Below, one piece after another: positions 8,931 through 56,185 of a stretch of DNA of 64,000 bases. The notes below the pieces were generated by a model, which was not told the origin of the DNA, did not search any database, and saw nothing but the letters and a program-made list of their open reading frames with translations. How positions within the stretch are numbered: position 1 is the first letter of the stretch; the number at the start of each line of letters is the position of its first letter. The translations under genes and the position numbers were made by a program. The DNA comes from Marsupella aquatica. Its lineage: Eukaryota; Plantae; Marchantiophyta. The stretch lies in NCBI GenBank assembly GCA_973895155.1, contig OZ316891.1:1851324-1915323 (forward strand), written 5' to 3'.

Positions 8931-9054
8931 GATGAAGAATACCTCATTAGTAATGATTTAATAAGAAAATTTTGTATCTTTCTGTTTCTCGGTCATAAAA
9001 AAATAAAAAATTTATTGATTAACAACTTTATATTTAAAAATCTATTTACGCATC

Positions 9055-24600: not shown

Positions 24601-26612
24601 ATTTTTATTCAAAAATGTGTCACTCGGTTGCATGCTTCATAAATATTTATGTGCAAAGTTTGTAATCCTCGACTCAAGATTGCATTTAAAGAGTCTTTTC
24701 AAAGTGAGGGCTGCTTTCACAATTTTGTATGACCATATTGATCTTCAGATCGCCATCCTCTCACATTCTGCTCCGAGTTGTTTAAAGCTCATACGAAACC
24801 TGAGCTTCTAAACGAATTGAACGAATCGTCAGGACTGGTGGAGGGATGACTTTTGTACTTCTGTACTTGAATCTGTAGTTCTGTAGCTAGAGGTACGGGA
24901 GGACACGCTAACCGTCTGATCTGGTGGCCCTAGCTAGATGATGGGACGGCATAGCCGAGCTTGAATATGCTACTATGCCCACGTATCACAAAACGTTCTC
25001 CAAACAAAAGACGTTTCCTGCAGTGTATGTGGGAGCACACAAAGAAAAGAACTTGAGATGAGCTCATCGTAACGATGGGTCAGATATATCGAGCACGAGA
25101 TCGAGACTAGGCTTCCTGCCTTCGATAGTACCTCATTTGTCGTTCGTATCCATAAGCTGCAGCAGACTATGTAGGGACCTCTTTCTCCCCAACTTTTCCT
25201 GTTTCCGAACAGCGTTGTCTTACATGGCATCGTGAGAATTCGTTTGTTGGTTAATTTGGCGTTTGCATGGATCGAGCATATGGAAGAGCCGCTAGCATTT
25301 TCTTCCCCTTTCTTTGCTTGATCAGTTATTCTAGGGCTAGAAGTGTTCTTCAACGCTGCTAATTTTTTATGATGTGAATACCAAATATTGTAAACCAGGA
25401 GATTTTTTACAACCCTCCTACTGTCGCATTTTTTTATCGAAATAGTTTCCAGACTTCTAGGAATACCTTGAGACCTTATTGCAGAATGGTCAGACCTATG
25501 ATAGGCCTGGAACTGCAAAGATCACAACCTGTTGGTAGTCCAGAATGAATGTGAACTCTGGCGATACCAACTTGCTCAGAATAATTAAACTAAATCCCTG
25601 CGAGAGTTTTATCTTCGTATGCTTCTGGACTTTCTGGAATTGCCCATAAAAGAGTGTAATTTAGAGAATTGTGTCTCTTGGTAACGACACTAAATTCTGA
25701 ACCTGCATGAACATCGTGTTCAGTTGTGAGGAAAATAAATAGGAGTTAACAATCTTTCACAAATTAGGTATACCAAATCTTTGTTACCAGGGCATTCTAG
25801 GTCACAACTATAGTTATATTCTGAAAATAAAATTTATTAGTGAGGGGGGCCTTACAAGAATGAGCCAACAGACAAGTCTTCATTTTCTAAGCTCGGATTC
25901 CTGGGCATTGGCTCGCCTCCCAATATGGAAAACCACAGCGGTATAATACTTCGTGTGCAGAGGAACTTGAAATTGATGTTGATAACGTTGTTCAGTGGTT
26001 CCGAGAACACTCTGGCCGGGGACTCAGAATTACCGCCTCTAGGCCGGTCACCAGATGAAATACACCAATCGACTAACTATGATATGCTTTGACTTGTCTT
26101 GTGAAGCAAATATAGCAGTTGTGAGAAATTAATATATGGCGATAATAAACCACTACACCTATTATCAATGTCGATCTGAGGCAGTTTTCGATCTTCCAGC
26201 TGTCACTTACCTTCAGCGCTGGTCGCTAGTCATATGTAATAACACTTGGCCAATCCCTGAGTTTCTCAGAATTCACTAGTCATACGTTCTGTGTTCCTTA
26301 TTTCAGCGCTGGTCACTCGTCATGTGTAAGTACTCACGTACTACTATAGTGCATGGCCAATCGTTAGCTCCAATCCACTCATCTCGCATGTCATTCGTTG
26401 GTCGCTCAGACACTCGTGTCCTGCTGGACTTTGGATCCTTACGTAACCTATTTAAGCCAAGGAAGCCCGTCAAAACTTCACAAAGCAGTCGGGAATCCAT
26501 CGCTGATCGACCGTTAAAGATTCTTCCTTCGCTCAGAATTTATCTACTTCTCGTGCATGCGTTGTTATTGTTAAGCGTCAGGCTTACGGCATGCACTTAT
26601 CCTTTTCAGCAA

Positions 26613-28087
26613 ATGGAGAAGACAACGTCTACTATGACTGTGAAGACGGGTGTGACCCAAGGAGTCGAGAACGACAAGCGCAAAGACCAGTCAGGTTATG
26701 AAATTTTAAGTCAGGAGGACATCCACCAGCGCCAGGAAGACGCGGTTTCCAGGGTCACCAGGATCCTATCATTCTCGAGGCCTGAAGCCGTTGTTCTTTT
26801 GCAACATCTCGATTGGAACGTCAGCAACGTGCTTGAGGAATGGTGTGAAGATGAGTACCGACTTCGCGAATTTACGGGGCTTGTCCAATCCCATCCACAA
26901 CAGGAAGAGGAAAGGAGATCTCTTCCAGACATGACATGCGGAATCTGCTACGAGTCGCAGAATTCAGAGCACATGAAATCGGCCGCGTCGTGTGGGCATT
27001 TCTTCTGCGACACATGCTGGACGTCATACATCCACACCGCCATTGAAGACGGCCCAGGCTGTTTGACTCCGCGCTGCGCTCATCCGTCTTGCAGCGCTGC
27101 TATAAGGGAAGACATAGTTCTATCGCTGGTCTCAGAAAACGACGGAGCCAAGTACACAAGATACCGGCTCAGAGCGTTCGTGGAAGACAGCAAAACGGCC
27201 AAGTGGTGCCCGGCTCCGGGGTGCGAGTATGCTGTGGAGTGTGAGCATCTTGCTGGCTCTAAGTCCATTGTGTGGAAGTGCTCCCACAAGTTTTGCTGGA
27301 CTTGTTTGCAGGAGGCTCACCGGCCTGCAGATTGTGAGACTGTTGCGAAGTGGGTTCTGAGATTTAGTTCAGAATCCAAAAACATGAACTGGATTCTGGT
27401 GAACTCCAAGGCTTGTCCCAAGTGTAGGCGACCAATAGAAAAGAATGACGGGTGCATCCATATGACCTGCCAGGCACCCTGCAGGTTTGAATTCTGCTGG
27501 CTCTGTCTTGGAGCTTGGACCACTCACAATGAGGAGTCGGGAGGAAACTACGCTTGTAATGGATATGATGATTCCGTGAAACAGGGTCAGCTTGATGGAG
27601 CACAAGAAAGATAAACATGGCTAATGACTTCCGTTACACGCAGTTCTGTGAACGCTGGGTTGCGAATGAATCTTCGAAGAGAAAAGCCCTTGAAGTTCTT
27701 CAGCACGTGCAGTCCATCCTCTACGACAAGCAATGCCAAACTAAGTCCGAATTGGAATTCTTGAATAAAGCATGGGTGCAGATCGTCGACTGTCTACAAC
27801 TTCTGAAGTGGACGTATGCACATCACTACTATGAACCTGACCATGATCAAATGTTGGAGTACTCGCAGGAGGCAGAAGCCGTACTGGAGAGACTCCACGA
27901 GTGCGCCCAAAAGGAGCTGCAACAATTTCTTGACGGTCAAGAGACTCAAACTAGTCTCAACGAGAACCGTAATAAACTTGTAAACTTAACGACTTTAGCA
28001 CACGAACATTTTGAGAACTTTGTACAATACGTGGAGAATGGAGCACGTGATCGAGCAGATATACGGAAAACGTTTGAACGTAGGTGA
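26613..28087 (+). pseudogene. ARIADNE-like RBR E3 ubiquitin ligase, intronless CDS, frameshift near 27610
   Basis: UBA-like region (LLQHLDWNVSNVLEEW), RING1 (CGIC...CGHFFCDTCW), IBR (KWCPAPGC), RING2 (KACPKCRRPIEKNDGCIHMTC), then the Ariadne domain in a shifted frame (27617-28087). Acceptor cttttcag lies just before ATG 26613. Confidence 0.88.
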
Positions 28088-29904: not shown

Positions 29905-30245
29905 CTCTGCTGCTCTTTCCAATAGACTAGAATGTAAATAAAAGCCATCCCCTGGAATGATAAGCTTCTCGACCTGGTGGTCTTCTCAATAAAAGAGATG
30001 TTTGTCTATAAGCTTGAGCTTGTTTTGAAAGATCATCATCATAAACAATAAGAGTGTGTTGTTCACGTGTGCTGTTCATGATACTTCAAGTATTTCGCAA
30101 GCGCTGCTCCTGTATAAGGAGCAAGATATTGTAATGTAGCAGGAGAATTTGCAGTTTCTGCAACGACTATTGTATGTTCGAGAGCACCGCATTCTTCAAA
30201 AGTATTCACTACTTGTCCCACCAATGATTTTTTTGCCCAATAGCC
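29905..30245 (-). pseudogene. atpA: Degenerate plastid atpA fragment (second, older NUPT)
   Basis: [26 protein letters not shown]...[30 protein letters not shown]...FYLHS.LLERAA. Wording is plastid-type rather than mitochondrial. Contains indels and stops. Confidence 0.85.
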
Positions 30246-33012
30246 ACATACACACATATTGGAGTACAAAGGTTGGTCACGCCTCTGAATTTAATCACAG
30301 TAATATTCATTCCATACTCACAACGTCCCATATATGGGTATTATCTGGAAATTCTTTTAATAGGAATAATAAATTACCAATTTTGTTTCATGAATATCGA
30401 GATAAAATCCATTCTACAAAAATCATTGTGAAAGAAAACAATACTTTTTATTATTTGGGGAATAAAAACCAAATAATAATTGTATCTCGAATTGCTGGAC
30501 ACCCAATGCACCTTGTTTATTATCACATCCTGAAAACTAGATTCTAGGCTGAAAGTAGACTTACACTGGATTTTGTGGTACCGCCCCCCCCCCCCCCTAC
30601 ACCCCCCCAAGAAGCTCCTCTACTTCAACAGAGTGTAGAAGCTAGATTTTAGGCTAAAAGTTCTCCGGAGGGCTTGGTGTGGCGTTGCAGTGAGCACGTT
30701 CTTGTGAAGCCCCTAAGAAGAATTAGAAGAAACACCTACAATACTTGTCTAGTGCCTCCTACAACTATTGTACAGATTTTAGTAGATTACAGGCCTAGGT
30801 AACTATGTAATCTGACTGACAAAGAGGTCCAATGGCGGTGTGGCTGCCTTTAAAAGAGGCCACAACTTGGCACATGGGTGTGAAACTTTTTGAAGATTTT
30901 CCAAGCCCTTAACTGGGTGAATTTGGGGGAGGCCAATATCTAAGGGCCCACTTGCATGTAGTCGGTCCTTCAGAATGCGGCCTTCACACTTGCCTAACGT
31001 TAGCGCATAAGCACGATCTTGTTGATGCAGTCGATCCTACCCACTCCAACATGCAGTCCAGCCTTTCGACCCCGTGTCCCTGCTGTGTCGTTATGTGCAC
31101 ACGGTATACAGGGAAGATTGACAGGATGAGGCTCTGCAAACCGAGTGAACCTGTAAATCGATATGTGCGACGACTGAACCCTGCAAAAGTGCCGAAAGCA
31201 AAAACACAATGACGACTGAACCCTGCAAACTTCTCAAATAATTTTCAGCTTCCAAATTCGATCATGTCTGATTTCGACTGTGCACCCCCCCCCGTGCGGT
31301 TGATCTTGGCTGTGCGCTCCAAGACTTTCGAGCTGCTTGACGACATCTTTTTCTCTTTCGATTTTCATTCAGTGAAAGACTTGGACAGTCCCTGGACATA
31401 CCGGAAGATTCCTCCATAGCTTGTCGCGATGTATTCCACCAACGCCAAATAGAGGACGATGCTTGGGAGCGATGGCCGATGCCACAAACTTCACCCGAGG
31501 AAAATAATTGTGGCCTTGTGCAACACCGTTTTCAGCAAGGAAGGCTTATTGGTTGTGCGGAGAAATCCCATCGGGGGACGTTGAATGAGATTGTGGAGAG
31601 TACATAGCCATGAGAAATCTCACGAGGACAAAGATTGTGAAGAGGACATGGCCGGCTCCTGGACTGGAGGATAGAAAGTGTCGATCCTAGCCTAAACACA
31701 GACATTCTATTCTACACAGACATCCGATGAACGATTCCATGTCCTCTGTTTGGTCTTCGATTTTTCTATGAATTGGCCTCAATATTGAGCAATGTCGATT
31801 GTTGCTCTCGGGAAGTAGAGATTGTTGGATTGGGTAATCGGTGGGGACCTGCATTGCATTGCATAGAAGAGGAAGCAGCTGCTGCTTACTTGACTGTCGC
31901 CGTATCAAGTCCTGTACTGCTGCCAAAGGACTCTCGTTGTGCTCAAGGTCAGTGTAGCGTGAAAAATAGATGTTCACACGAAGTGCCTTGAGTATTTTAC
32001 TTGTATTCATCACAAAACTGAAATTTTGTTTGTTTTGTATCTATTGGACATAAGAGTGATTGCTACAAATGGCTATGTCCAATTTATGTTTTATGCATGA
32101 CACCATGCCATCTTAATATGCTATAACAAATTCATCTATTTTATATCCGTATGATGTCTATGCAATGCTGAAAGTTTATTTAATTACATTATGAAACATA
32201 TATACTTTTGATGTAGATTTGCTATTGACATTTTAATTTATTTGATATAAACCTTATGTTCCATCTATAATTGGTGTGTAAACTACACATATATAACTGT
32301 CATAAATTTTTGACCAAATAAGCTTAAAAAACTTTTGAATTCAAAAACTTTGGAGGAAATATTTAACCAAAATAAGCAGTGAAAGATTTCCACAAAATTT
32401 TCATAGATGTTAAAGTAAGGAGAAAGGGAAAACTTTATTTCAATAAACTTTGTTCCTCTAAACTACATAGTATTTCCCAGAGTAGTGCTTTGTCAGCCAG
32501 TTTTGTTTGACTGTTTCTAGAGATAACCTAATGCCATTAAAGTGTCAACATGTGAGAACCACAGCCGGTTGGAGACAGTCACCAGTGGTAACCTTAGTGG
32601 TAACCTTTGAAAGACCTCACTGCCAGAACATATTTGCAACTAACTACCCTTTTGCTCAGTCTGAAGACAAAAAATTGTCAGCTGGTACAGGCCGCTCCAT
32701 AGAAACCTCAACATGAGCATATTCATCTATTCGAAGGCCAACAGCAAAAGCTGTTGCGCGGCTCTTTCCTATCTCTTGCACAGAAAGAGGACTGGCCTTG
32801 AGTTGCTTCTTGACGCTAACTCCATCCTGTGAACCCAACAATTATGTGAGAAAAGCAAATCACACATGAAGACTCAATTACCTCTCCTGTCAAATGAATC
32901 CAGATCAAAAATTATCAACAGCATACACCTGGCAGGCTGACTCAAAACACAAATAAACAGAAGCGATATATAAAGGCTACAAGATATAGTACCTGCATTG
33001 CATGGTCCACCA

Positions 33013-36000
33013 TTAAAGTTTGAATCTGTTTTCAAAATATGTGCCAACTTGAGCAAAATTAGGGACACAATGAATCACTTTAGCAATGTTTGCTACCTCC
33101 ACAACAATATAAGGCACTTTGGATCTTTTGTAAAGTGCTTTTCTGCTTGTAGAGGCTGTCGTGCCTTCATCAACCCACTGGAGCTTTGTGCAGTGCAATA
33201 ACTTCCAATCTCCATCCCTTGGCAGCTTCTCCATCATTCTAACAAATGCTAGATGCTTCATGATCTTCTTGCCACCCTCATCAATGACTTCACAAGAAAT
33301 CAGCAACCTCAGTTGACCATAAGATGTTACAGGATCAATGCCAGCTTCTTCCATCTGAAGAGAGACGAATCCAAACCATTCTTTACCATGGAAACTTCTG
33401 CAGGCACGGGTGTACATTGGCCAATCTCCAAATCGAATGCCTTCCCCAGCAGGCACTGCTAAGCTTTTCCAAATTTGTATTATCTCAGGAACTGCACAGT
33501 TCTCATCATTCAAGTGCATAACAAAGGCTTCTCTCAGGTGCAGTTGTATTTCTGGTTGACACTGAAATAGTTCACTCACTTCTACAGGCACAAAGTCATT
33601 GTTACTTGCATCAAGCCAACTCAATGTCAACCTTATATCCTTTCCAGATAGGGTGATCTGTCCTGTCAATACAGCCTGCACATATCAAATCATAAAGCAC
33701 ATGCATAAGTGCCTACAAGACATCCTTTGTAAAGTGACATGTGTTGCTACACAGAAAGTACAAACTGAAAGTGTAGCAGAAGTGGGAGGGAGGTAAGGGG
33801 AATAGTACTCGGTCCAGTGCAGTAACATCTTCTGCGTGCACTCTTAAGTCTTCTTGATAGCTTGCTTCGTCTAGTAAAATTCTAGTCCTCTGGCTATGCC
33901 TTGCTATTTGCCCCATGAAATTCCTCTTGTTGCTATGTCTGTATGGAACCTTCATGAGGGCAATGTGAAGATGTTCGAATATACCTGTGTCATATTCTAA
34001 AGGCAACCCACATCGTTTGATACAATCTTTCAGGTGACTCATGGCATGGACTTTTACAATGTTGAAACTTGACTTCTGCCAAGTTTTAGCGTGTTTTATC
34101 ATCGATCCTACTGCTTTTTTCATTAACTGATCCATTTGATTCAAGGACCTCTCAGAATGTTGTTTACTCTGGAATGCTAGCAAATACCAATCTATGAAGT
34201 CCACAAAAACCTCAATGAGCGGATTTGGAATGACGCCAAGCAAACAAAATACCACAACCTGCATAACAAATTTATGCTCGAATCCATGAAAGTTAGCATT
34301 GCTTTGAAAGTAACCACTTTGGTTACTCCCAGGCAATCTAAAGGAAGCATAACGACATTCCTTGTGTATTTTCTGGAGTCTTCTATCAAGTTCTTGCATA
34401 GGTTTTTTCACAAGGCTCTGGGAAGCAGCAGCCGATCTCACAATGCCCACTAGAGTCTTGAATACACCTAGTATGGACTGATGAAGACCGTCTAATTGTA
34501 TGCATTGATAGGGATTTCCATACAGCAAATCACCTCCACAAAATCCCCATAGAGCACACTGCAAGACATCACAAGAAAAAAAATCACTCACAGTTGACAG
34601 AAAGAGAAGAATAACTGAACACATTCAAAACTCCCTTTGCACAATCAATGCTCATCTCAGTAAGAAGTGCTTACCTGTACTGGATAAATCGACTGCTCCT
34701 TAGACATCTGTTTCTGATCTTGCACAGAAGACTGTCGCATCTCTTCTAAGATTGCTTCCATTCCCTTCTCATCCCTGTAAGAAAATCTTCTTGCAACATT
34801 GCTGAGGGATTCTTTTGGACAGAAACAACAACTGCATGGATAATTTGACTTGTTTGTATCAAATGTGCATGTGATTCTACTCCCCTCTGTCTGGTCACAG
34901 ATATACAGACATAGTCTTGGAAAGACCCACTGGGATTGACCAAATGGGTCTTTCATGTGAACTCCTGTATGACTTGCCGCCTTCAATGGTGCCAAAACAA
35001 TCTCCTCACATTTGTGAAACAGTTCCAATTTGGCTGTACTAGGAACCTCTGTCTCCAATATACCTACAGCAAAGAAATTAGTGTAAGTATTTCAAAATGA
35101 ATATAAAGGTTGTAAGTGTTGGACTTTTTAACATCCTGGGAATATCTACACAGACAAAGAGCAGTCAAATTCAACTGGAGGGGAATAATTGCAGTTTAAA
35201 TCTCACCTGGATCATTCGGACCAATAACAGGAAGAATAGCCAGCAAAGCGTGACCTTCTGGCAAACTTCTAAGACTGCAATTAATATTGCCAATTGTCAT
35301 GACTAAAGGCCAACCCTGAGTTCTCTTGTTGTGAGACAAGGCAGTCTGATCAGAATACAAAATGATGGGTGCAATCACTCCTCCTTTGCAAGTAGATTCA
35401 ACGTCTTGCTCCATTTCCCTCCACCACTCAGCGGATTGCAAAGTAGTGTACAATCTCTCACTGCCCTTTATAGCAACTGAAGAGTGAAGTGCAAACTCTT
35501 CTTTATTTTTAGGAGAAGAAAATAGATCTTCCAAAACACGTAATGGATCACGATGCAACAAATGAACTGGAGCACTTTCAGTCTCCTCGCGGACTTCAAC
35601 CTTTTCCCAATTTTGGTCACCCCTCTCACTTGTTAAACTTTCCTCATATTTACAAACCTCAGCAGCAGTATGAACCTGGACTTTTTTGGTATCGAATTGA
35701 GGGTGGTGCAGCAGCCGAAATAATCTGTTCATATCTTTGTGAGATAATCCTCCTCCGTTGTGGCATTGTCTCATAAAGAAGACAAGTTGAAAAGTAACAT
35801 CAAATTTTTTATTACATTGGGCAGGAGATGTGAATTCATTCTCAAACAGGTCCATGAATTCCTCAGAGGACTGCTCTCCAACTGTCTCAACATTGGCCTG
35901 TATAGATTCCGGTATACATGTGTTCCCAACGTTTACACTCGTACGAAACCCTTCGTGCTCTGCCTCCATCACATGATCAGTCTGTTTAGCCCTTTGCACA

Positions 36001-36110
36001 GCTCTCTGTTTAGCTAAGCAAAGTCCATTTCGTCCTTGGTGGGTCCGCAAAGCTGTATAATCCAGAAATCCCAAAGCTCCACAAAAATTACACTTAAAGT
36101 TTGAAGCCAT
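33013..36110 (-). CDS. Plavaka-type (CACTA/Mirage/Chapaev-related) transposase, 4 exons, about 901 aa, apparently intact
   Basis: Exons 36110-35207, 35063-34675, 34558-33809 and 33675-33013, with GT-AG introns joining in frame (2706 nt). Motifs: N-terminal CxxC...H...C finger, PIILYSDQT, GWPLVMTIGNI, CDQTE, CSCC, DGLHQSILGVFK, FNIVKVHAMSH...FEHLHI..K.PYRHSNKRN. Confidence 0.82.
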
Positions 36111-38839
36111 CAAAAATCCTGTTGTCCCTACACAGTATAAAATCAATAGTGTATTAAAACCACTACTCTGCACATCGATACTTATTGTTGATTACATTCA
36201 TTTGAAGCTCATAAAATATTCATGGCTCTCTTTCACCAAGACTTCCTTTTTCTAAATTTCTTCTGACCTTCCACTATTGAGTAACTACTTTTGTTGAACT
36301 GAGAAACTGCTGCTGTTGAACTGAATACAAAATTGGAAATTTTTCAATGAATTACTTAGGGAGTCACCTTAAGTCACCTGATGATGCACCTGAGTCCGCG
36401 ATGTGACTAATTATAGACCAATCCTTTGGTTGCACTAATAAATCACATCACATACCCACCTTCTGATGTCCGCCTCTGCAGAAAAAGCAACGTCTATCTG
36501 TCACTAATTGAACAGTGTCATACATTGCACGGAAGCAAATTGGCCATCGGTATCATGCACGAGTGTTGTTCTCGCTGTTGTGTTGATGTAGTAGCGTTAC
36601 TTCTCGCTGTGCTCACTCTTTGGAAGCGCTCGTTGGATTAGTCAATTTGTTCGCACCTACAGTAGGACGCATAGTTATGTGCAATAGCATTGGTGCAGTA
36701 GCGGTGTCTCTCGCTGAGTATGCAGTAGCGTTACCTGTCATTGTGCTCACTATTTGGGAGCCCTCGTTTCATTCATCAATTCGTTCGCAACTGCAGGTTG
36801 TTAAAGCTCCGCGCAATCTGAGCTCTATTAAACACTCTGTCTTGTTCTCAAGTCGTTTGCAACCAGGTCAAAGCATTTTCGCAAGCTCCCGGAAATAAAT
36901 CTTAGCTATTCGACTACACGCTCTCTCGTTTTGTTCGCTACTACATCTAATTGAAGCATTCTATCAAGGCGAAGCACAAAAATCGGAACTCCCGGCTATC
37001 ATGGCAATTGAAAAAGGTAAGAATCTCGCCCGGTTTCTTCCCTATCCCGTGTGATTTCTCCCTGCGGACGGACGGACAACAATTTTGCCGTAGGATCTGA
37101 CGTCCGGCTCTTGCCCATAGCGTCTCCTTTTGACTTGGGCTCCTAGTCAGATACTTCATCTTGACCTCTCCTTGACGTGCTCTAACCTGTCATCGAGCTC
37201 CTAGAGAAAAAGGAGATATATCGATGTTCCAATTATAAGCAGCCCGTACCATGCAGTGGTCCACAAACTTGTGAAGAATTCAGGGAGTTTGCCACCAAAT
37301 TCGATCCACTTACCTTCACATTAAAATATTCTAAACCCTTTCCTAACCTTGTCTCTTCGTCGATTTTCACTCGACCGCTTGACTCGAGACCTGTGCAAAA
37401 TTGCAAACTGGAGCTCGGCCCTCCCGTAGCAACATTTCTCTCTCGCTTGCAGCTTCCGCATCCCTTGCACTCGAAAAGAATATTATTACTTATTGAACGC
37501 GCTTGCATCTCCTCGACCTCTCTTGCTTTGAGGGAAAGCCCTTTGCCACCCTAGTGAGAAAGAAATCTGCAGCATATATCCTCTGCTGGTACCGCTTGCA
37601 GTACCAGCATCTTGCATCTCCTCGACCTCTGCGCTTGCATCTCCTCGACCTCTGCCATACTTGTCGATTCCAAGTTCGGCGGCCGAAGGGAGACCGACTG
37701 GCACCACTCTAGGTCTGTCCGTTCCGTTCAGAATGCCGGAACCTCGATCTCATCACCTTGCTTGCAAAACCAAATGCAATGTCTGAGCAACCGCGAGTCA
37801 ACTCACTAGGTGAACCCGCCTGTGAGCAATGCCGGCACCTCTCACTCACTCCCTGGTATAAGATTTAGCAGGGATCTTCCTCTCAATCGGTTGCATCCCA
37901 CTACCCTGAGGACCCCGAAATATTGCTTCATCGCATAGACTCTCTCGTCGGGAATTGTCTCTCTTACCACTACCGTGCGGTACACTCTCGTCCATTCTCG
38001 TTACTGCCGCAAGCATCGCGTCACTCATTTCCTCCTTTCTATCGGACGTTCCGTGTCCTATGGATGTTGACAGTCAAGGGTTAAATTACCTGACGGCGAG
38101 GAGCCCATCGGATGCTAGAGTAGAGCATTGCATATTGGACACTCGTTGGCATTTTGGCGCAGGACTCCAGAGAATCCATCCATTCCATCATCCGCTCGCT
38201 CTCCTTTCTTTCGGTAGCCTTAAACCTGAGTGACCTTCGAATTCTAGAGGACTGTATCACTGCAAGACGGCTCTGACGCCCGCACTCCCTCCACCAGCAA
38301 GAGGTTAAAATTTTCCAAGCTAATACTAGACACCGCTAGTCTCGAAAAGTGTCATGTCTGCAACGTGAACTGTGCAGTCCAGCCGACCAATTTGTCCACT
38401 TCTGTGTCTCTATCGGTCTCTCTCCCTCTCTCCTCAGTCTATTTCCTTTCCTCGGAAGCTAGCTCGCATTGTCCAAGCCCCTCTCTTATTCGAAAGCGAG
38501 GCATCAAAGCCACCTACTTGGAGCTAGGGAGGGAGAGGGACTTGAACTGTAAGTGAATCAATCAACTAATCAATCAGTCCAATCAACATTCTGAAAGTGA
38601 GGATATTCACCTGCTACATTCCGTGATTCGTAGCTGAACAGGACTTAACGATGGCTGAAATCTTCTCTAGCTCTTACTCTCAATATCTTGTCTCAATATC
38701 TTCTCTACAATGCAGCATAGAGTAGTATTCAATAATGCCCTCTTTGCTAATATGGGATAATGCCTTCTAAAGAGGACTCACTTTGGTATACAAAAAGAAC
38801 TAAAAATCATACAAAGGCGCGAAAGACAAACGAGGACTA

Positions 38840-39110
38840 AATCAGAATGTGTGCAAGGGACTTCCCACACATGCCAATGAGAATCTGAGGCCCCTTGGCC
38901 AAAACTACTATGGTATCGGCCAACAGCATCGAGAACTTTCTTGTCGTTGGATCCACCACCTCTTGGAACCCAAGCACGACATTGAACACCATGCCCGCTT
39001 TCAGCAGGACTCCATCATTGCTCACAGACAATGTCATGTTCGATTCGTTGAACTCGATTCCAATCCCGTGCCCAGCATCTCGCGTCAGATGTGGAAGAAA
39101 CTGGCCCTTT
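38840..39110 (-). pseudogene. FACT subunit SPT16 peptidase-M24-like domain fragment
   Basis: LTRDAGHGIGIEFNES...LKAGMVFNVVLGFQ...KFSMLLADTIVV matches the SPT16 pattern G.GIG.EFRES...FNVSLGFQ...FSLLLADT. Isolated fragment. Confidence 0.75.
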
Positions 39111-41684
39111 ATTTGACCTTTGTTCAAATGTTCCTTCTCGTCTTGAAGTCAAGATCTTCGACCATGACTGTCGTCCGCAAGCCCCTGTCAGAGGCATCTA
39201 CAGACTTGGCACATGTAGGCTAAAATAAGCTTGTTATGAAATCTGGTCTCTCCTCTGATATCGTGAATGTTAGCTCATGATAGATTCTCACCGTCTATCG
39301 CTGTCAAACTATGCTAGCTACCGTGGTTGTAACCTATGAACTTTAAGTCGTCTTGTGTCCTCAAAGTATATGTTGCTCATCGGGTTGAGACAGAGACTAG
39401 AAAGCACCCCTTCAATCAACGCCCGATGCCTTGACAATTGCATACACACCGACTGAGTATGCAACGCAAGGATTACAGCCTGTGTTCTCCAAGTTCTCCA
39501 AGTGGCCGAAGTGGTGGTCGAAGTAGTCAAAGTAGTTGAACTCCTCGTCCTCCTCTGCCCCGCCCTTCCTCCTTCCCTTCCTCTTCGTCGTCTAAGTTGG
39601 ACTAGTACTGAGGTTGCTGCTGCTGCACCGGCTCGTCCATTTTGACACTGCTCCTCCTTGTGCTGCATTTTTCCTTCCTCACCCTCGCAGCTGCTCCTCC
39701 TCCTCCTCCCGACTTCCTCTCCACGTTGCCGTCGTCGTGCGGCCCTCAACTCCAATTCCCCTAAACTCCTTGCTTCGCCCCTTCCTCCTCCTCCCCCTCC
39801 CCCTCCTCCCCCTCCCCCTCCCCCTCCTACGACAAAGAGCGCAGCCCCGTCGGCCGCCCCCGACGGGCGTCTTGACATTTGGAAGGGCCGTCTCGGGCAT
39901 GAGCGACGAATTGTAGTCTTGACGTCCGGAAGGGCCGTCTTGACGTCCGGAAGAGCCGCTTTGACGTGCAAAAAGAGTGCAGGGAATAAATCTGCTTTTA
40001 TAACACGTAGAGCATACTTTCAGATTTTCTACCTCCCGGTCAAGTTTTTTGAGCTCAAAATTGGTCCTTCAAGGGTCCTTGAAAGATTTTGATGCCAAAA
40101 CGCTCTTGCACAAATAGGCGAATGTGACAATAGCAATCAGTGACAGTAACTCGCTGTTCGCTTTGAATTGTTTGCATGGCTAGATGGACAATGGAATGCA
40201 TGAGGGTTTTCGTGCGGGAAGATGCGCTGAGACAGAGTAGATTACATTGTACGTGTGCTCTAAATGCGAGGGCAAATTGGACCACTCAAGATTCATTTAG
40301 AGTATCTAATCTCTTTGTCCGGATGAAGAATCAGTCCGGCGCCGATCTGTTTGTGTTCGGTGTCAAAAATGAATTCCAGACAGGCAGAAGCTATTATTGC
40401 AATGAACATCGAACTGCGTGGAGTTAGATTGTTGGAATGTTAGATTGTTCCTACTGTGGTTGCTCTGGCCGGGTGTATTCCAACTTGTGCGGCACACAAA
40501 CCCTAAACCTTTGAGCAACTGGCACAAAACTGCTTTTGAGTATGGACGGTCTCAACTTTGTATTCTAAGATTCTAAAGATCCTGGATGTCCTTCCCCTTT
40601 GTCCATCATGTCAATGTAATTTTTGCACGCTGAGCATCTCCCATGATATTCCGAATTGCTCTTCCTGCATGCCTGATGTATGTGTCAGTCTAGTGCCTGT
40701 TAAACTTCTAATTAAAAAAAGTCTACAGTAGTTGGTGGGCAAGATATTTAAGTTCACGCTAACCCAATTTTGCTTTGGCATGCAGGCATGACGGGGAAAG
40801 CTGACATTGAAGGATCTGAAAAGCTGATGCACGTGTCCATTTAAAATAGTCCTATATTTTGCCTGCCCTACTATAGTGTCTACCCAGCAAAAACTTGAAC
40901 AATCCAGCAAGTGAACTGGAAATGATGCACTGGTATTGTTTTATATGATGCCCACCAGGCGACAGCTAGCCTGTGTGGGAGTTGAGAGTTTGACTGAAAT
41001 CAGAATTCAGAAAAGAGAGGCTGTTGTCATCTATCCACGGTCGTGTAATAGTGAAAGGGAAGGCTATGAGGAGTGGAGGATTTGTACAGACAACCAGAGA
41101 ATTGGAGTCATTCACCGAGCAACAAAAGGTTTAGCATGCAGGTAAAAGCAAGAGCGAGAGAGGGGCGTTTCATTTTGGCAGTGGAACCTGAAAAGATTCA
41201 CTGTTAATTTTCACTCTACATGGACGTCTACAAAAGGAGATCAAAGACTGTGTTCATTTTCATAGTGATGGCACCAATGATGATGAGACTGGTAACTTGC
41301 CACAATCTTCTACAGCAATCTCAAATGGAGATCCGCACTGCAGAGAAAGATCCAGCATGCAATCTATTCTTTGCGGGACCTTTACTGCAAGGAATCATTT
41401 TGCAAAGTGAAGGAGATAGATATAGTAGGTTCAGACCATATTGATCTTTATTTGATTTTTATTTGATTTTCTGGATTTGCAACAGAGAATAACAACTGAA
41501 CAAAAAGAAAATGACAAGTACGCAGAGTTTATCTGGTTTGCAACAGTAAGTAGATACAACTAAAGTAGGTCCACTATCTACTCGCAAATTATAGCTATCA
41601 ACTGACTAGTTGTAAATTGTTGGCCTATTTTATTTTTCAGAAAAGTAACTTGTCAGGTTCATACATCAGCTTCTTGTCATACTA

Positions 41685-43032
41685 AGCGTCAGGACACTTA
41701 ATTGCTATGCGCTTCATATATGGCTCCCACTCAACAATTTTCTGCGACATTTCCTCCAACTCGCCTGCCAGAGTAAGTCTTTCGTTGCCCTATAGATTCC
41801 GGTCCTCCATAGCCAAAGTCAGCACATAAAATATGAAAGCAGCCAGATCAAGAGACAGTGAAATTATGTCAGACGGGATATAGTGAACTCCAAAGATTGC
41901 CTTGGAAATGGCAGCATGCACTGCTAAAGAACCCCAAGGGTCCCATATTCCATCTGACTCAGAGGTTCTCCATGCGTCATTGTGCTTGTGGACCTGTAGT
42001 TCTTTTATGAAATATTCTTTCTCCTGTAAAGTTGATCCTCTGTGATACTTCCTGACTCCCAATTGTTGATATAGCTCATCTCTGAGACTCTGCAAAATAA
42101 AACAGTGAAATTTTAGAATAATTATACAACATAAGGAGAGTGCATAGTATTTTACTTCTGATCTTGTTGAAAGCTTACCTTTGTGAGCAATCCTTTTCTC
42201 CTCCTCATTGCATCTTTCATGATTGCTCTGAAATTTGGTTGGCTGGTATTGTTGTTCCAGGCTCTAACGAATTCATCACGAGATTTCTTGTCTTCAATAG
42301 AAATTCCAAATTCATGCAGCAATGCCTCTTGCTGAATATCCTCTGTAGGATAGAGTAGCTCTTTCTCCAAGAGCAGGTGGCTGACAACAGAGTTCGAAAT
42401 TCTCTTCAAAATTCTCGGGTTACAGTGAGCAGGCGGTTCTTCGCTATCCTTCAATGCACTTTGATTTGCTTTGAGTAAAAACTGAATAGTCTCTTGTGCT
42501 TGCTTGATCTCTCCCCTCAAAAGTTGAAGCTGTATCCGCTCGCCAGCATTTACCAATGACTTCTGCTGTGTAACCTCCATGTGTGGAATCTCTGCATGCG
42601 CAGTGCTTGCCTCGGGCACCTGATCTGCTAGAAAAGTGCGTGGATTCCCAGAAGATGGCAACGTTGTTTGAAATGGCACCTGACCCTTTGAACAAGCACG
42701 TGCATCTCCAGAAGAATGTAACGGTGGGCTAGGAGAGCCGTCAGGATTTGTACTCTCAAGGGACCCTCGCTGACTGGAACTAGTTTGAGAGTTTCTAACA
42801 GTATTGACAAAAGTATCTCTCCCTAACTTTTTGCCACTGTGAACAGTGTCTTGACTGAAGCTACATTTCCTCATGATAGAAGTCTTTTTTCAGCAGGTTG
42901 GGGAGGCGTGCCTGGACAGGAAGGAGGAGGAGACACAACTGCTGGAGGAGGAGGGTCCGGATACAGATCCAAATCAATTATGTCGACTTGTCTCCCCTCT
43001 ACTGCTCGTTGGATAAGCCAGGGCTCAGCCAT
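41685..43032 (-). pseudogene. Unknown, probably TE-associated two-exon ORF with a frameshift and an internal stop
   Basis: 240-aa ORF 42152-42874 with a coiled-coil segment. Donor aag|gtaagc near 42178 and acceptor ttttgcag near 42090 lead into ORF 41790-42095. Family not recognised. Confidence 0.45.
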
Positions 43033-43442
43033 TGAAAATGAGCCCAAAGTATTTCAAACTTACTTTATGGAATGGTGCAAGTGGCCTGGAGGCCATGGAT
43101 CGATCGACGCTTCAGCAAGTGGCTTGGAGGCCATGGATCGACACCGCAGCAACTGGCCCGCACCATTGATCTTCATCTCACTTGGAAAATGTAATTATAA
43201 AGATCGTTGAAGTGTACTCTACTTGATTTGGAAAATGGCGCTAGCGCCCCAATTTTGAAATTGATAATTCTTATTTTGTTCCGTGGCAGAGGGATTTCAA
43301 TCGTGAATTGGTAAAGTGTCAATTAGCATCTTTCTTTGCTCCATGCAGGCATTGTGATCCATAGAGACTGCCATGGGTGGAAATTGTGATCCGGGAGAGA
43401 CTGCCATGGGTGGACATGATGCATTATCACGAGATGGAGAAC

Positions 43443-44520
43443 GGATGGCTCTGCGGTGTGGAAATGCAGAGCTGGGAACAAATTTTGTCTCTCGAATCTT
43501 AGACTGATTCGTCCACCTCGGAGCCTAGAGGAAGGCGCTCAATCATGGACTTCTTGGTTTGAATCCAGTTTTCTTTTTTTGTCCGCTGTTGTTCTGAGAA
43601 AGTGGGAATCGGGGGATTTTTAGGAGGAGATGCCTCTGCGCTGTGGAAATATATGCAGAGGTGGGAAGTTCTTTCACTTCTCGAATCTTAGACTAATCCG
43701 CTCGCCTCGAAGCTGAAAGGAAGGCGCTGAATCGTAGACTTCTTGGTTTGCTGAATCCAGTTTTTTCTTGCTATCCTCTGTTGTTCTGGGAAAGGGGAAT
43801 CGGAGGATTTTTAGGAAAAGGATGGCTCTGGGGTGTGGAAATGCAGAGGTAGGAACGAATTTCACTTCTCAAATCTTACACTGATTCGTTCGCCTTGGAG
43901 CTTAAAGGTAGCCGCTGAATCGTGGACATCTTGGTTTGTGGAATCCTGTTTTCGCTTGCTATCCCCTGTTGTTTTGACAATGGGGAATCAAAGGATTCTT
44001 AGATGGAGGCCCTATTAAGGAACACGATCGTCTTTAGCAAAACATTAAGTGTTGAGTAATACACTGATTTGAAGTGTTGCATGTGAACTGTGCAAAATTA
44101 GCTGAGGACCTCAACAACTGGCTCTGCGCTGTGGAAATGCGGAGGTAGGAACGAGTTTCACTTCTCGAATAGATTTATCCGTTTGCATCGGAGCTTAGAG
44201 GAAGGCGCTGAATCATGGATTTCTTTGTTGTTGAATCCACTTTTCTTTTGCTATCCCCTGTTGTTCTAAGAAAGGGGAAATCGGAGGATTCGTAGGAGAA
44301 GGATGGCTCTGGGGTGTGGAAATGCAGAGCTGGGGACAAATTTCACCTTAGACTGATCCGTTCGCCTCAGAGCGTAGAGGAAGGTGGTGAATCGTGGTCA
44401 TCTTGGTTCGGTGAGATCCGTCCAGTTTTTTCTTTCGATTCACTGCTGCTTTGAGAATGGAAATATCAGAGGATGTTTAGGACAAGGATGACTGTGCTAT
44501 GGGGAAATGCAGAAATGGAA
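43443..44520. repeat. Degenerate tandem array, unit about 185-190 bp
   Basis: Motif ggatggctctg.g.tgtggaaatgcagag recurs at about 43443, 43629, 43820, 44120, 44301 and 44486. Confidence 0.85.
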
Positions 44521-46449
44521 ACTAGAGCAGCAGCTTCCACGATTTGGAGTCCCATCAAATAGTTCCGTTTCGCCAGGTGCTGTCCGAAATTCAACATGGA
44601 TTGGAGTAGTTTGAGGAGGGGAATTTACCAAGGAACAGACAAAAGAACGGCTTGATTATTGAACTACTGTGACGCGCTATGCTCGATAGACTCTCCACAA
44701 TCTATGGAGCGCTTTCAACGAGCAGCCCCTTCACCTGATTGCTGGAAACGTAGATTTGAGGAGATGGTTTCCTCAGTCTGTATGTTGTCGAGCTGGTAGT
44801 GACTAGGGAATATCGCGTCATGGATCATCTTCGTAGTTCCAATATCAAGCTGCCTTTTGAATGCCTCTTCTGAATTCTCTGGAAACCCGATGAACTTTGT
44901 TCATGAAGTGAATTACACGACATTCTGTCGCAAATTGACAAATGTTCACTTGCAAAAATGGCAGAACTGTGCACCAATGGAGGGAAACAAGAAGGGAGAC
45001 GAAACGAGGTCGCTGACAGCACCACCACCACCACCACTACCAGGAAGGCCAGCCAGCAAGCCGAGGAGACCACTGAAGACGTACCAGAACCACGGCAAAA
45101 GCACGGAAGCAAGGACCCACCGCGTCAACGACCCACCCTACAATATTCCTATGTCTGCACTCCACCCGAAATGACGCAGAGCTACCCCCAGTCCAATCCA
45201 AGCTCGCCACTCCCCGAGCTTCTCATATACCCAATGCCGACTGCGGGATTCAAGACTGGCTTTTGATTTCTAGGCTGGTACTGCCCCACCTTTTCTCCCT
45301 CGCCGTCAATTTCATTGGAGAACTTCTCCATCCACCCTCTTCTGCCGTTACGTTATATTCCAATACTTCCAATTCTATTATGAACATTTCGGGATGAATA
45401 TTAAAGGACTCATCTAGCTTGGCAAGCGTGAGAAAGGCCTCTCTTTGCCTCTCTAATGAAGCCAAATTCTTCTCTTGGAGCCGTTCTATTCCACTCTAAT
45501 GCGGTGGGTGGCTGGACCTTTGTGTGCAACGAATATGTTGAAGACTAATTTATCTCTTATGTCGTTGTCAGTTTAGTTGTTTCTCCTTCTGTTGCCAGGT
45601 TGTCTTCATTGGAACGTGTATGGTCCTCTCTTTCTGTCTGCGTCTATTATGGTCTCCGCCATCTCTTTTGTTCTCCTCTACATCACCCTAGTGTCTTCTG
45701 GTCGGGCAGCCCGCGATTAGTGTTCTCGCTGTAGGTTTGAGTACCTCTCATCTGGCAACGTCCGTAGCGAGTTCAGTTGGATCTCTCATCTAGACCAGGT
45801 AAGTCCCTTCCATCACTGAATTCCAGGAAAGTCTATGTTGCAGATAGGATCGGAATTTCTCCCTTCTGTCAACTGCCCGCCAGCCGTCCACAGAGGGATC
45901 GGTGCGGGCTTGGATTCCTTTGGCTCTACCTTGTAGGGAGATTTCCTCCCTGGGGACGAGAGTTCCCTAGGACTATCGCTGGCCTGATCGAGTTGCTCTT
46001 CTCGAGTCCATTCCCTCGTCGCAGCGTCCCTTTCCAAACCCACCCTCCCCCCCCCAAACACACAGGCATGGCCTGCCGTCTCAGGTGGTCAGGATGGTGC
46101 GAGTGAGCCTTTCCTGCCCTAATGAACATTGGAGCACCAGTTATTCGGGATTATTGAAGCACATACTAGTCTGTAACTAGGTTAGTTCTACATTGTGCAG
46201 TAACTCGTGGCTTCCATGAAGTGAGCTGGAACATATTTCTGAGTTGATCTCATGTCAATTATCTCGGTTTGGCAGATGCTGTGTGAGAATTGGTATTGTA
46301 TGAACGTGGGTGCCAATGCTTTGTTTCACAAAGGATTGGTTCATTAGCTACAAATGAAGAGTGTAAGCATATGGCACGCAATTGTGAAATCCCCTTTGAA
46401 TCCTCTAAGATGCAATCACATAACAACATTCCTCCTTCAATGGAATGTG

Positions 46450-46555
46450 ATGTTCTGCTTATGGCAGCTTACCCAGTATGATAAAGTCATCTACATCGAT
46501 TCAGATTTGCTTGTGCTACAAAATCTGGACTTCCTCTTCGACATGCCGGAGCTCC
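46450..46555 (+). pseudogene. Glycosyltransferase family 8 (glycogenin/GUX-like) fragment
   Basis: LWQLTQYDKVIYIDSDLLVLQNLDFLFDMPEL with the DxD motif. Confidence 0.7.
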
Positions 46556-46725
46556 AGTCACTGTGCCTGCTCTACCTTGCTCACAATGCCCTCCCGCCTT
46601 GATAACATGTGTTCGAGTATGACAACATTAAAAGAGGAACTCCAGTCACTGTGCCTGCTCTACCTTGCTCACAATGCCCTCCCGCCTTGATAACATGTGT
46701 TCGAGTATGACAACATTAAAAGAGG
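46552..46725. repeat. 88-bp-period tandem duplication, near perfect
   Basis: ctccagtcactgtgcctg...acaacattaaaagagg occurs twice. Confidence 0.9.
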
Positions 46726-47400
46726 GTCGACGTGCTGCAATCATAGTAAAGTAAGAGCAAGAGATGTGTGGTAGAATGAGCTGCATGCACAACCCAATAA
46801 CTACTTCTTACCCATTATTAAGTCAATATTACTACATCATCTATATGCGATCTTTTTTTTGTTTAATACATGGACATATCGTAGCAATCTATTGTTAATT
46901 TTTAATGTCTACCGGATATCTAACTGACGTTGGTTCAAGTACATGAACATTACAATTAAGCCATGACATGTTTTTATGTAAAAGTTATGACTCATATATG
47001 TCAATGGGATATGCAATCCAATTTACATCATAATCACATACAACCAATATCAACTTAGCATATTAAGCAGTTTGATACAAAATGATTGTCCAGTACACTC
47101 ATAGAATTGACGAAGAAACCATGTACTAATCCACCTTATGTCAAATACATATACACCTCAGTTTCGTGATGTTGAATAAGTTCAAAGTATAGGACATGTC
47201 CATATACTTGGAAAAACCAATTGCTTTTTCACTAAGATCACCGGCACTCTATTTTTCTTTGGGATGACAATTCTAGATTGCTTTCATTTAGTTTGTACAG
47301 GTTTTCTTCACTTGATATGATGGTTTCACTTGATATAACTCTGTTTGTTTTCTTTCTTCCATATATTGTGCAGGCCTTGGGATTGCAAAACTTGGAAAAT

Positions 47401-49019
47401 ATGGTTCTTTCAAATGAGGAACTTGAAATCATTGTGTCAACAATTCTTGCGTTCCAACAAGTGGTAGAGCAGCAAATGCGATTTGCAGCTCTTGTTGGTA
47501 ACTATTTTTTGGAATCAGGTGATGGGAGACTCCTTGCAAACTTGTTTATACTCTTCCAAACCATTCAACATGCATTTTTCCAGAGACCAGATCGTCTTCT
47601 ATCTGACAATTATATCGAGCCCAGATCTAGAGAATGGAGTGGCTGGTACCTTATGCATGTTATCGAAGACGATCCTGTCCGCTTCAAGCATTTGTTCCGC
47701 GCTCGGGGGTCTCACTATATGGGGACCTCCCCATCACCTGCAACGTTTTTAGGCCTCGGACCCCCTAAAATGTAAGAAAAAATTATTATTTTTTAACCCC
47801 TATAAAGTTTAAATATTCTTGGAATATTCCAAAAATTTGATTAAAAAGGCCCAAATGTTCTTATAAGTCTCAAAATTGAATTTAAAAGACCCTATTGTTC
47901 TTCTACAAAAATTCTTAAGTCTTCCCTTACAACCAATAAAATGACCCTATCCTTCGTCGCATGTGATATGCCATTTTTGTGGAAGTGAAACCCCCAAGGT
48001 TCCGCGTGTCACCCGCAACATTCATGTACATTTGCGACTTGTTTCGAGAAGATTTGACTACACATCCCCCACCTGGCCTTCGCAATTTGACCAACAGGGC
48101 ATTGTCCGTTGAGCGACAAGTTGCCATAGTGCTGCGTAGATTTGCTACTGGGTGTTTGTTGTTGACACTTTCAGAGATGTTTGGGGTTTCAGTTCCATGC
48201 ATTTCTGATGTGATTTGGCGATTTGTTAAGGCATTAACAAGACGCGGTAGAGAAAGATATTTGAGTTGGCCGCAAGGAGAGGCCATGGCAAGGGTGAAAG
48301 AGGAATTTTTCCAATTGCAAGGATTTCCAAATTTTTGTGGTGCAATTGATGCTACTCATTTTCAAGTAAAGTTACCTCTTGGAACAAACTCAACTGATTA
48401 TCGTGACTACAAACATGGCCAAAGCATTTCAATGCAAGCCATTTGTGATAGTCGACTTTGATTTTTGGATGTCTTTGCAGGATGGCCTGGTAGCATTCAA
48501 GATTCACGACTTTTGAGAGTCTCAGGTTTTTATGACGACGTTTTGACACACCGCACAAAACTCTCTGGTCTCACATTTACAGCTTCGATAGGATTCACTA
48601 CAGGGGAGTATATTATTGGTGATGTTGGCTACCCTGCTTATCCTTGGTTGCTAAACCCTTTTCCAGCAACTAGAGAGCATAGTCAAAAGAGAGAGTTCAA
48701 CTACAGGCTTAGCTCAACTAGGATGTGTGTGGAGCGTGCTTTTGGTCAAGTGAAAAACAGTTGGAGATTTTTTTCTCGCAAAATGTTTCGGCCGCATCCA
48801 TAGCAATTGCCACATTATATTACATGTGCATGCCTTTTGCATAACATTCGTATTGACCGTGGAGATGTATATGATCCAGCATGGGGTATAGATGCAGACC
48901 CTCCATATGAACCTGGAGGTCCCCCTGCTGCACCTCAAACTTCAAATAATGGGCGTAGATATCGTATTGCAATGATGAATCATTTGCTAACTGAGGGAGA
49001 ATGGGGGCATGAAGCTTAG
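47401..49019 (+). pseudogene. PIF/Harbinger DDE transposase (HARBI1-like), disrupted by a MITE and two stops
   Basis: FRVSPATF, GAIDATH, DVFAGWPGSIQDSR, IIGDVGYP, RMCVERAFG, ACLLHN. In-frame TGA at 48459 and TAG at 48801. Confidence 0.92.
47702..47998. mobile_element. MITE, 8-bp TSD family, inside the Harbinger transposase
   Basis: TIRs ctcgggggtctcact / agtgaaacccccaag. Perfect TSD gttccgcg. Removing it restores LFRVSPATF. Confidence 0.92.
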
Positions 49020-54599: not shown

Positions 54600-55400
54600 A
54601 ATATAAGTTAACAAAGGTTTGAGTTTAATTAAAGGTTAGGTTTATATTTGGTTTTAATCTAGGAGTATTTGGTTTAATTAAGGGGGTTAGAACTTGGGTT
54701 AGGTTGGAATAAAAGGGTTGGGTTTAAATTAATGGGTTTGGCTTAGGGTTCAAGGTAGAGGTTTGCATTAGGTTGTGAGTAATTACAGGGGTTGGGTTTG
54801 GTTTTAGTTGAGGGGTTGAATTGTGGTTGTTTTTGAAAGGGATTGGGTTTGGTTTTTAGTTGGGGGGTTTAATTGTGGTTTTTTTAAAGGGGTTGGGTTT
54901 CTAATGTAAGTGTTTGGGTTGGGGTGTAACATGATATAGGGTTGGATTTGGTTCTAATTGAGGGGGTACAATTTTTGCTTAAGTTTTAAAAAAGGGCCTC
55001 AATTTAGGGGTTAGGGTGAAGTTTAGAATAACTATAGGGGTGGGGGTTGGCCTATATAGGTAAAGTAAGGTGTAGATACTAGGGTAAGGGTTTTATATGT
55101 AATTGGGGGATTTGGGTTGGGTTTAGGGTAAAGGTTTGAATTTTTAATGAGGGATTTGGGTATTGGTTAGGATAAGGGTAAGGGTTTAGGGTGATTGAGG
55201 GATTTGGGTTAGGTTTTAATGAAGTGTTTCATTTCATGGTTTGGGTTTAGGGTAGGGGTTTAGGGTAAAGGTTTGAATTTTTAATGAGGGATTTGGGTAT
55301 TGGTTAGGGTGAGGGTAAGGGTTTAGGGTGATTGAGGGATTTGGGTTAGGTTTTAATGAAGGTTTCATTTCATGGTTTGAGTTTAGGGTAGGGTTTGGGT
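54600..55400. repeat. Degenerate telomere-like (TTTAGGG / GGGTT) tract with a tandem duplication of about 137 bp
   Basis: Strongly G/T-skewed, with many gggtttaggg. 55119-55255 is repeated at 55256-55390. Confidence 0.8.
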
Positions 55401-55836
55401 TACTTATATTTCTTTCTCTATCTCATTAACATGGAGTGGAAAACTCTTTGGCGTTGTAGGGCACTTCCCCATGTTTTTTAAAGTTTTGGCTAATGCATGA
55501 TAATGCCTTGCGAGAGCCCGGGCATCTGAAAGGTATAACGTTTTCTCACGCATTTCTAGTCATTGCTGTAAATATGGAGGGTTACAATCTATCATCCTTT
55601 TTTTCTGGTTCACCATAAGGCATGGCTTAATTCATTGTATATTGGCAGATTTTCCCCTCCTTCCAGATTTGGTTCATGAAATTTGAGCCACAAGATCCGT
55701 CAAGGCATTGCTAAGCCCGAGTCTCATAAAGGTATTTTTCTGTCAATTCTTTTTAATATGTTTGGGTAGGGATTATCAATGATGGTTTTGGTGAAGTTTT
55801 TACTAATCGCCTTCCAATTGCTATATACTTGTCAGA

Positions 55837-56073
55837 TGTCTTCATCCTCTACAACTTCCACCACATCAGATTCCTCTTCCGATGAAGAAAGTCGTCCTCC
55901 TCGATCCTCAGCCTGAACCAACCGTACGTCGACCTAGTGGTCCACCACGCCAACTTTGTGGTTGTAAAAAATGTGTGGGGATGGTTGTCCAAAAGTCATA
56001 TGTATGTGCGGAGCACATTGCTCGATATGGCCAACATCGAGGTCTTACACCGAGAGCTTCTTCATCCCGTATG
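55837..56073 (+). CDS. First coding exon: transposase-associated Zn-binding domain (one frameshift near 55900)
   Basis: CGCKKC...YVCAEHIARYG fits the CxCxxC...HLxxxG pattern at CACTA transposase N-termini. Ends ATG|GTGAGT (phase-0 donor at 56074). Confidence 0.7.
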
Positions 56074-56185
56074 GTGAGTTGTAAACTTACTGTGATTTCC
56101 ATTTTATTTTGTAAATCTTGCTAGGTAGCATAAAATAAAATTTGGGAGGTTCATCACACTCACTTGGTTCCATTTCTTCCTATAG

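Follow-up and report, generated by a model that had tools for sequence, protein, structure and literature searches.

What is an apparently intact transposase gene of the Plavaka type, a group reportedly defined by Iyer et al. in 2014, doing in the genome of the liverwort Marsupella aquatica? The gene lies on the minus strand at 33013..36110 of the 64,000-nucleotide stretch of DNA analysed here (the window). A preliminary description, made from the letters alone, had offered three answers: a young active element, a domesticated gene, or a lineage acquired from fungi. The best explanation, to which we assign a probability of about 85%, is that the gene is the still intact transposase of a complete PlavakaB-type transposon, 15,164 bp long and inserted in another transposon, and that the family of this PlavakaB element has likely moved in recent times and likely descended within green plants.

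Gene structure and splicing

Joining four minus-strand exons gave 901 aa plus a stop codon (2706 nt) with no internal stop, just as had been proposed, and all three introns were of the GT-AG type. Exon 1 (35207..36110, aa 1-301) carries a putative C2HC zinc finger and the first presumed catalytic aspartate, D254; exon 2 (34675..35063, aa 302-431) holds the second, D358, together with a CxxC motif; exon 3 (33809..34558, aa 432-681) contributes the HxxxH zinc ligands and the presumed catalytic glutamate, E626; and exon 4 (33013..33675, aa 682-901) encodes a domain with a predicted BAH fold. Intron 1 (35064..35206, 143 nt, phase 1, 34% GC) and intron 2 (34559..34674, 116 nt, phase 0) occupy the same positions in homologues, and intron 3 (33676..33808) is 133 nt long and also in phase 0.

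Freedom from stops gives no unique splice model by itself, since 440 combinations of junctions keep the frame open. The choice is fixed by the homologues, which either run across the same junctions or break at them. The continuous proteins P0001, P0002, P0003 and P0159 cross the junctions wherever each covers them. Among the 19 proteins compared, ORFs from genomic contigs break at these points: P0010 aligns precisely to aa 302-431 (92% identity), P0153 covers aa 431-682 (91%) and P0006 spans 681-901, while P0160 and P0067 cease matching at aa 303-304, P0004 ends at 431, and P0005, P0007, P0154, P0065, P0073 and P0096 all start at 430-431. The exceptions were P0060, which continues to 316, and P0004, which shows no break at intron 1.

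Indels between copies gave a similar picture, as 7/7 of those inside the gene fell in introns among the indel rows listed (24 of 248 rows); in one contig comparison, intron 3 held 6/6 of the gene-internal indels among the rows listed (12 of 188). From these genomic comparisons we infer that the transposase transcript would be spliced at three introns. The nearest named protein, P0001 of the liverwort Calypogeia fissa, is 66% identical over 669 columns and 71% identical over exon 3.

Conserved residues and predicted fold

The Plavaka identity was borne out by a Pfam search, in which PF18759 scored 77.2 bits on exon 1 and 57 bits on exon 2, against a cut-off of 26.3; exons 3 and 4 gave no Pfam match above cut-off. 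Matches below the cut-off to Integrase_H2C2, MCM6_C, CoV_NSP13_ZBD and DUF4096 were weak and were treated as chance.

The motifs named in the preliminary description (SDQT, CDQTE, DxLHQ, and those of the HxxxH and ExLH types) are all present: SDQT at aa 253, CDQTE at 357, DGLHQ at 454, KVHAMSH at 600 and FEHLH at 625, with CSCC at 378. They coincide with columns that are nearly or fully invariant among the ungapped rows of an 87-sequence alignment (D 70/70, D 77/77, E 82/82, H 82/83 and H 80/83), and every conserved catalytic and zinc-binding residue is intact in the window's transposase. The protein displays a presumed DDE triad plus C(2)C and H(3-4)H, both lying after the second D and ahead of the final E (D254, D358, C378/C381, H602/H606, E626), in which D254, D358 and E626 would be the catalytic residues. 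The N-terminal zinc finger also described earlier (C7, C10, H24, C31) is plausible as a pattern of ligands, although no Pfam zinc-finger match was obtained at E<=1.

For the fold of the whole protein we used the Calypogeia homologue, 66% identical, as a stand-in (pLDDT 90.9). Its model matched RAG1 with E 2.4e-8 (Z 19.2, rmsd 4.2, 378 aligned). Exon 4 of the window was folded alone with AlphaFold2 (pLDDT 87.8), and ranks 1-15 of the 48,161 chains compared with this model were all BAH-containing (Z 9.4-6.1, with rank 16 at Z 5.1). The best structural match was the TNRC18 BAH domain (Z 9.4, rmsd 3.9, 118 aligned); with Foldseek alone the likeness was weak (best E 0.07). The last exon is thus predicted to adopt a BAH-type fold, a shared fold being a likeness that shows no function. 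A profile of the exon-4 region also matched Chara, Chlorokybus and Bryopsis and, weakly, fungal rows, so the tail appears to be old rather than plant-specific.

Boundaries of the element

Terminal inverted repeats, which the preliminary description had failed to find, are present at 32008-32021 and 47158-47171, the former 1 kb downstream of the transposase gene, the latter 11 kb upstream. The element reads on the minus strand, so that 32008..32021 (CATCACAAAACTGA, plus strand) is its 3' end and 47158..47171 (CATCACGAAACTGA on the minus strand) its 5' end. The first matches the reverse complement of the second at 13/14 positions, with the 14-bp consensus CATCAC(A/G)AAACTGA; this is the only pair in the window matching at 12/14 or better, and 0.008 such pairs are expected by chance in 32 kb. 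A TT target-site duplication (TSD) flanks the repeats at 32006..32007 and 47172..47173 on the plus strand.

Empty sites were seen as well. In 4/4 public sequencing runs, position 32005 is linked within a contig to 47173, a single C intervening (seen for runs X2 and X4), so that two bases separate 32005 from 47174 and the empty site reads A-CT-G, as against A-TT-[element]-TT-G in the window; on its shorter side the joint covers just 21 letters, under the 30-letter caution level. These sites probably lie in sister copies of the host repeat and are not proven alleles of the locus. Diverged copies begin matching at 32006-32008, with other flanks. Inverted repeats, TSD, empty-site joint and copy edges together delimit an element of 15,164 bp at 32008..47171.

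PlavakaB is defined in section 3.2.2 of Kojima 2025 (PMC12730594) by CATCA..TGATG ends and a TSD of 2-3 bp. The present element has PF18759 above cut-off, 5'-CATCA..TGATG-3' termini and a 2-bp TSD (from one insertion only), and its assignment to PlavakaB rests on domain, ends and TSD, the fungal rows in our trees being unclassified as A or B.

Other delimitations were considered. Termini of the PlavakaA type (5'-TGT..ACA-3') could be sought in the 8-bp pair TGTAGTCG/CGACTACA at 30957/36918, which was dismissed, the empty site and the copy edges lying at 32008/47171. The repeat edge at about 30954 is without an inverted partner. An EnSpm/CACTA element proper would have CAC..GTG ends, a 3-bp TSD and Transposase_21, whereas here we found CAT..ATG, a 2-bp TSD and no PF02992 match; in the same window, PF02992 gave 121.7 bits on a CACTA copy.

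The host repeat and the rest of the window

The repeat that received the element has its left part at 30954..32005, joined to 47173 in the empty sites. Its left edge is approximate: single-depth contigs stop at 30983 in 4/4 runs, and depth then rises. The right part, from 47174 to a provisional edge at 50347, is Harbinger/PIF-like, with a broken transposase on the plus strand (a weak DDE_Tnp_4 match, E=0.03) and a Myb/SANT gene on the minus strand (Myb_DNA-bind_4, E=8.9e-10). Inside the Harbinger-like transposase, at 47702-47998, sits a MITE of about 300 bp and very high copy number (depth hundreds of times that of the flank), which comes with an 8-bp duplication and for which 3/4 runs show empty sites.

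Elsewhere the window holds two decayed CACTA transposase copies, at 56412-60431 (plus strand) and 62654-64000 (minus strand), in inverted orientation and 78% alike; in the former, a SET-domain frame (56412-57005, E=3.8e-6) lies upstream of Transposase_21. A plastid-derived insert at 7528-9417 has ccsA-like and cysT-like frames (7528-8576), cysT being retained in liverwort plastids; together with the Calypogeia match, these frames make a liverwort host probable. A second insert, at 30063-30490 and at organelle-level depth, is a piece resembling ATP synthase alpha. Frames for an ARIADNE-type RBR ubiquitin ligase (IBR, UBA_ARI1), without obvious introns, lie at 26280-28084 (plus strand). The segment 27806-28932 is 83% alike to 1-1144, and receptor-like kinase exons of a host gene occur at 13922-14808 (minus strand).

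Other contents of the element

A second gene, ORF2, lies at 41682..42874 on the minus strand, with two exons (42874-42179 and 42089-41682) and an 89-nt intron. Contig depth there is as high as over the transposase, and since the two rise alike ORF2 is likely a conserved gene of the family. In the window's copy it is interrupted by an in-frame TAG at 41790-41792; a possible upstream start at 43032 is in another frame, and there may be a frameshift near the start. ORF2 had no Pfam match and no homologue at E<=0.01 in 1010 candidates from among proteins of 362-2000 aa, which is weak evidence; in the ESM Atlas the best score was 0.91, with low recognition and basidiomycete clusters, which is a lead only. 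Upstream of ORF2 is an array of repeats of about 188 bp at 43443..44513 (43443-44002 by TRF, extended to 44513 by self-BLAST).

CACTA-type elements pick up scraps of host genes, and two such captures were found here. One, at 38840..39148 on the minus strand, has a peptidase-M24 fold (PF00557, E=2e-6) and resembles the FACT subunit SPT16; the other, at 46348..46725 on the plus strand, is a glycosyltransferase-8 scrap (PF01501, E=3.9e-5) with a tandem duplication of 88-90 bp inside it, detected by TRF. At 37053-37087 there is a 35-bp fragment of another repeat, from which 12-21 contigs per run continue into different shared sequence.

The link to TET/JBP genes mentioned in the preliminary description was not borne out for this element: TET/JBP, SET and methylase families matched 0/104 stop-to-stop ORFs of at least 50 aa at E<=0.01, a search that small or decayed exons could escape.

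Copies, age and mobility

Copies were followed in contigs from four public runs belonging to two studies, one of which may be the window's source; the runs look like DNA, because their contigs span introns. The ratio of contig depth to unique-flank depth was 5.2, 5.6, 15.7 and 18.5 over the coding part and 2.0-5.8 over the interior of the element, values that are rough estimates, a depth ratio being no true copy number. On these figures there may be some 5-18 related copies, of which 2-6 would be almost the same as the window's, and for this reason we favour a young mobile family over a domesticated gene.

Interior contigs differed from the window by 0-3 positions per 232-786 bp in 15/16 of the pieces listed (37000-41700 or 44000-45500); the X2 contig at 40309-40845, with 33 differences, is probably from another locus. 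Contigs of the coding region differed by 0.6-3%. Copies about 90% alike start at 32006-32008 with foreign flanks, as seen in a 3094-bp single-depth contig and in three loose ends in X2. These data point to a small, very young subfamily inside an older family of up to about 18 copies.

The young element of the preliminary description is thus supported by its inverted repeats, 2-bp TSD, empty sites and near-identical copies, but present activity is a separate matter. At sites such as 32400, 32408 and 33229 all aligned contigs differ from the window, and since every contig does so at several sites the window's copy has started drifting. An alternative that we regard as possible, if somewhat doubtful, is that the family is no longer mobile, a recent last burst explaining the open frame and the copies now being silenced; it differs from our preferred reading in present-day activity only. 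Such silencing would fit the private changes, the broken ORF2 and a marked shortage of CpG in the gene (o/e 0.29), which prolonged methylation would be expected to produce. It sits less well with interior contigs at 2-6 times flank depth that are identical or nearly so to the window, with the integrity of all conserved residues, and with the confinement of the listed gene-internal indels to introns.

CWG sites are not depleted in the transposase gene (o/e 1.54), and the decayed CACTA copies at 55000-64000 gave 0.38 for CpG and 0.70 for CWG. Depletion of CpG only in the Plavaka gene could be due to codon constraint or to weaker non-CG methylation.

Relatives and origin

A search of representative sequences returned 1662 matches at E<=0.001, of which 150 were listed. 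Thirty of these were looked up and 21 could be named (Calypogeia 1, Closterium 12, Chara 1, Chlorokybus 1, Bryopsis 2, fungi 4); Calypogeia 2, Sphagnum 1 and Marasmius 1 brought the named relatives to 25. In rank, the named matches of Calypogeia, Sphagnum, Closterium and Chara all came ahead of the first fungus, and the fungal ones had only 26-30% protein identity to the window's transposase. Seed plants, ferns and lycophytes were not among the 25, a sample too small to indicate absence, and a tblastn search of phages gave no match. The Chara braunii relative (P0031, GBG85192.1) is annotated as 2125 aa, combining a Plavaka transposase with a core-histone domain; fusion during gene modelling may account for this.

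Trees, which were unrooted and without red algae, were built from 173 profile matches, 126 of them covering at least 330 positions; 13 redundant ones were dropped to leave 113 rows. In the FastTree of this set the query fell in a 54-row clade whose named rows were all green plants (19/19), and the named fungi (5/5) fell in the other clade, of 59 rows. A 35-row quick tree under a mixture model supported the bryophytes at 99, their union with Closterium at 96 and the addition of Chara at 93. With 20 rows, the query, Calypogeia and Sphagnum grouped at 100/99 and joined Closterium at 98/97, the place of Chara being weak (49/16).

Descent within green plants, from green-algal ancestors, is therefore likely on the evidence of the trees. 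Acquisition of the bryophyte lineage from a fungus, for instance a mycorrhiza-like symbiont, is disfavoured, because homologues occur in streptophytes as well as chlorophytes, in a nesting that approximates the plant tree. The preliminary description had itself named widespread, vertically inherited homologues in streptophytes as grounds against transfer, and we judge a fungal source improbable. It could draw on the ends of the element, which come close to those of fungal PlavakaB, for example CATCACGAAAAC and CATCACAAAATT (supplement of PMC12730594), and on ESM Atlas neighbours that are mostly Basidiomycota clusters, but Atlas clusters need 50 members, a bias favouring fungi. An AU test rejected a grouping of bryophytes with basidiomycetes (p=0.0009) and left one of bryophytes with all four named fungi unrejected (p=0.058); the rank order among the listed matches, the low fungal identity and the separation of the named fungi in the 113-row tree all speak against a fungal donor. 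The element provides no evidence for fungus-to-plant transfer.

That the gene is a domesticated derivative of a Plavaka transposase we consider very improbable: three introns at conserved positions, undepleted CWG (1.54, as against 0.70 in the decayed CACTA copies) and 66% identity to the Calypogeia protein could be cited in favour, but the gene is multicopy and lies within intact inverted repeats and TSD inside another transposon for which empty sites exist, and introns are normal in CACTA-type transposases.

Proposed mechanism and implications

In the mechanism that we propose for this PlavakaB-type transposon, the spliced 901-aa protein, with its predicted RAG1/Transib-like fold, would bind the CATCAC ends and cleave through the D254/D358/E626 triad, zinc being held by C378, C381, H602 and H606; reinsertion would take place with a 2-bp stagger. 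The predicted BAH-fold tail may contact chromatin or partner proteins. ORF2 would likely be an accessory factor, broken here and, if needed, supplied by sister copies.

One could go further and picture an active land-plant Plavaka, carried since a green-algal ancestor, whose tail reads silent chromatin and steers insertions into other transposons. We consider this extension unlikely as it stands; if true, it would be a DNA-transposon parallel to chromodomain-guided retrotransposons.

Irrespective of such targeting, our preferred reading means that at least one bryophyte lineage kept Plavaka, and that it was mobile there in recent times. It also means that CATCA ends and a 2-bp duplication are common to the plant and fungal branches despite only about 25-30% protein identity. 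With its ends mapped, this intact RAG1-like enzyme from a plant would lend itself to a transposition assay, and its predicted BAH-fold tail is open to testing.

Comparison with known systems

With PlavakaB of Agaricomycotina, as far as described in the available text of PMC12730594, the element shares CATCA..TGATG ends and a short TSD. It differs in its land-plant host, its lack of TET/JBP, the grouping of its transposase with green plants, ORF2 and the scraps of host genes. The main text of PMC12730594 on fungal PlavakaB makes no mention of a BAH domain, whereas a BAH-fold tail is predicted here. The literature searched likewise yielded no BAH domain in Plavaka, and the founding description (Iyer 2014), outside that search, may cover the C-terminal domain.

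Within Archaeplastida, the available text of PMC13519894 describes Plavaka from red algae, from chlorophytes and streptophyte algae, and from moss; it infers that the ancestor already had them and that land plants lost them, traces in moss excepted. The putative Plavaka of Spirogyra and other Archaeplastida described there likewise have Plavaka transposase domains in plant lineages. We found no delimited land-plant Plavaka in the literature searched, and the supplement of that paper (Figure S3) may include liverworts.

The giant Plavaka of the red alga Bostrychia (bioRxiv 10.1101/2025.02.11.637652) is comparable in size, at 17-19 kb against 15 kb here, and according to the text available also has accessory genes and internal tandem repeats; its copies are mostly degenerate. 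The domains of its accessory genes PAG2 (methylase/SET) and PAG3 (ParB/2OG) were not found in the window's element. Lanisha of the moss Ceratodon purpureus (PMC8245031), assigned to the CMCT clade in the available text of PMC12730594, is likewise a cut-and-paste element from a bryophyte, within the same broad clade, a likeness drawn from its description only.

More distantly, the catalytic core fold recalls RAG1, HzTransib and BbRAGL (PDB 6oes, 6pqx and 6b40; Z 19.2, 15.4 and 17.4, respectively, for the Calypogeia homologue), although identity is 10-13% and, unlike in these proteins, a predicted BAH fold is fused at the C-terminus. Published work already covers Plavaka in algae and moss (PMC13519894, in its available text); new here are a fully delimited land-plant element, its second gene ORF2, its captured scraps, the absence of detectable TET/JBP and a last exon with a predicted BAH fold.
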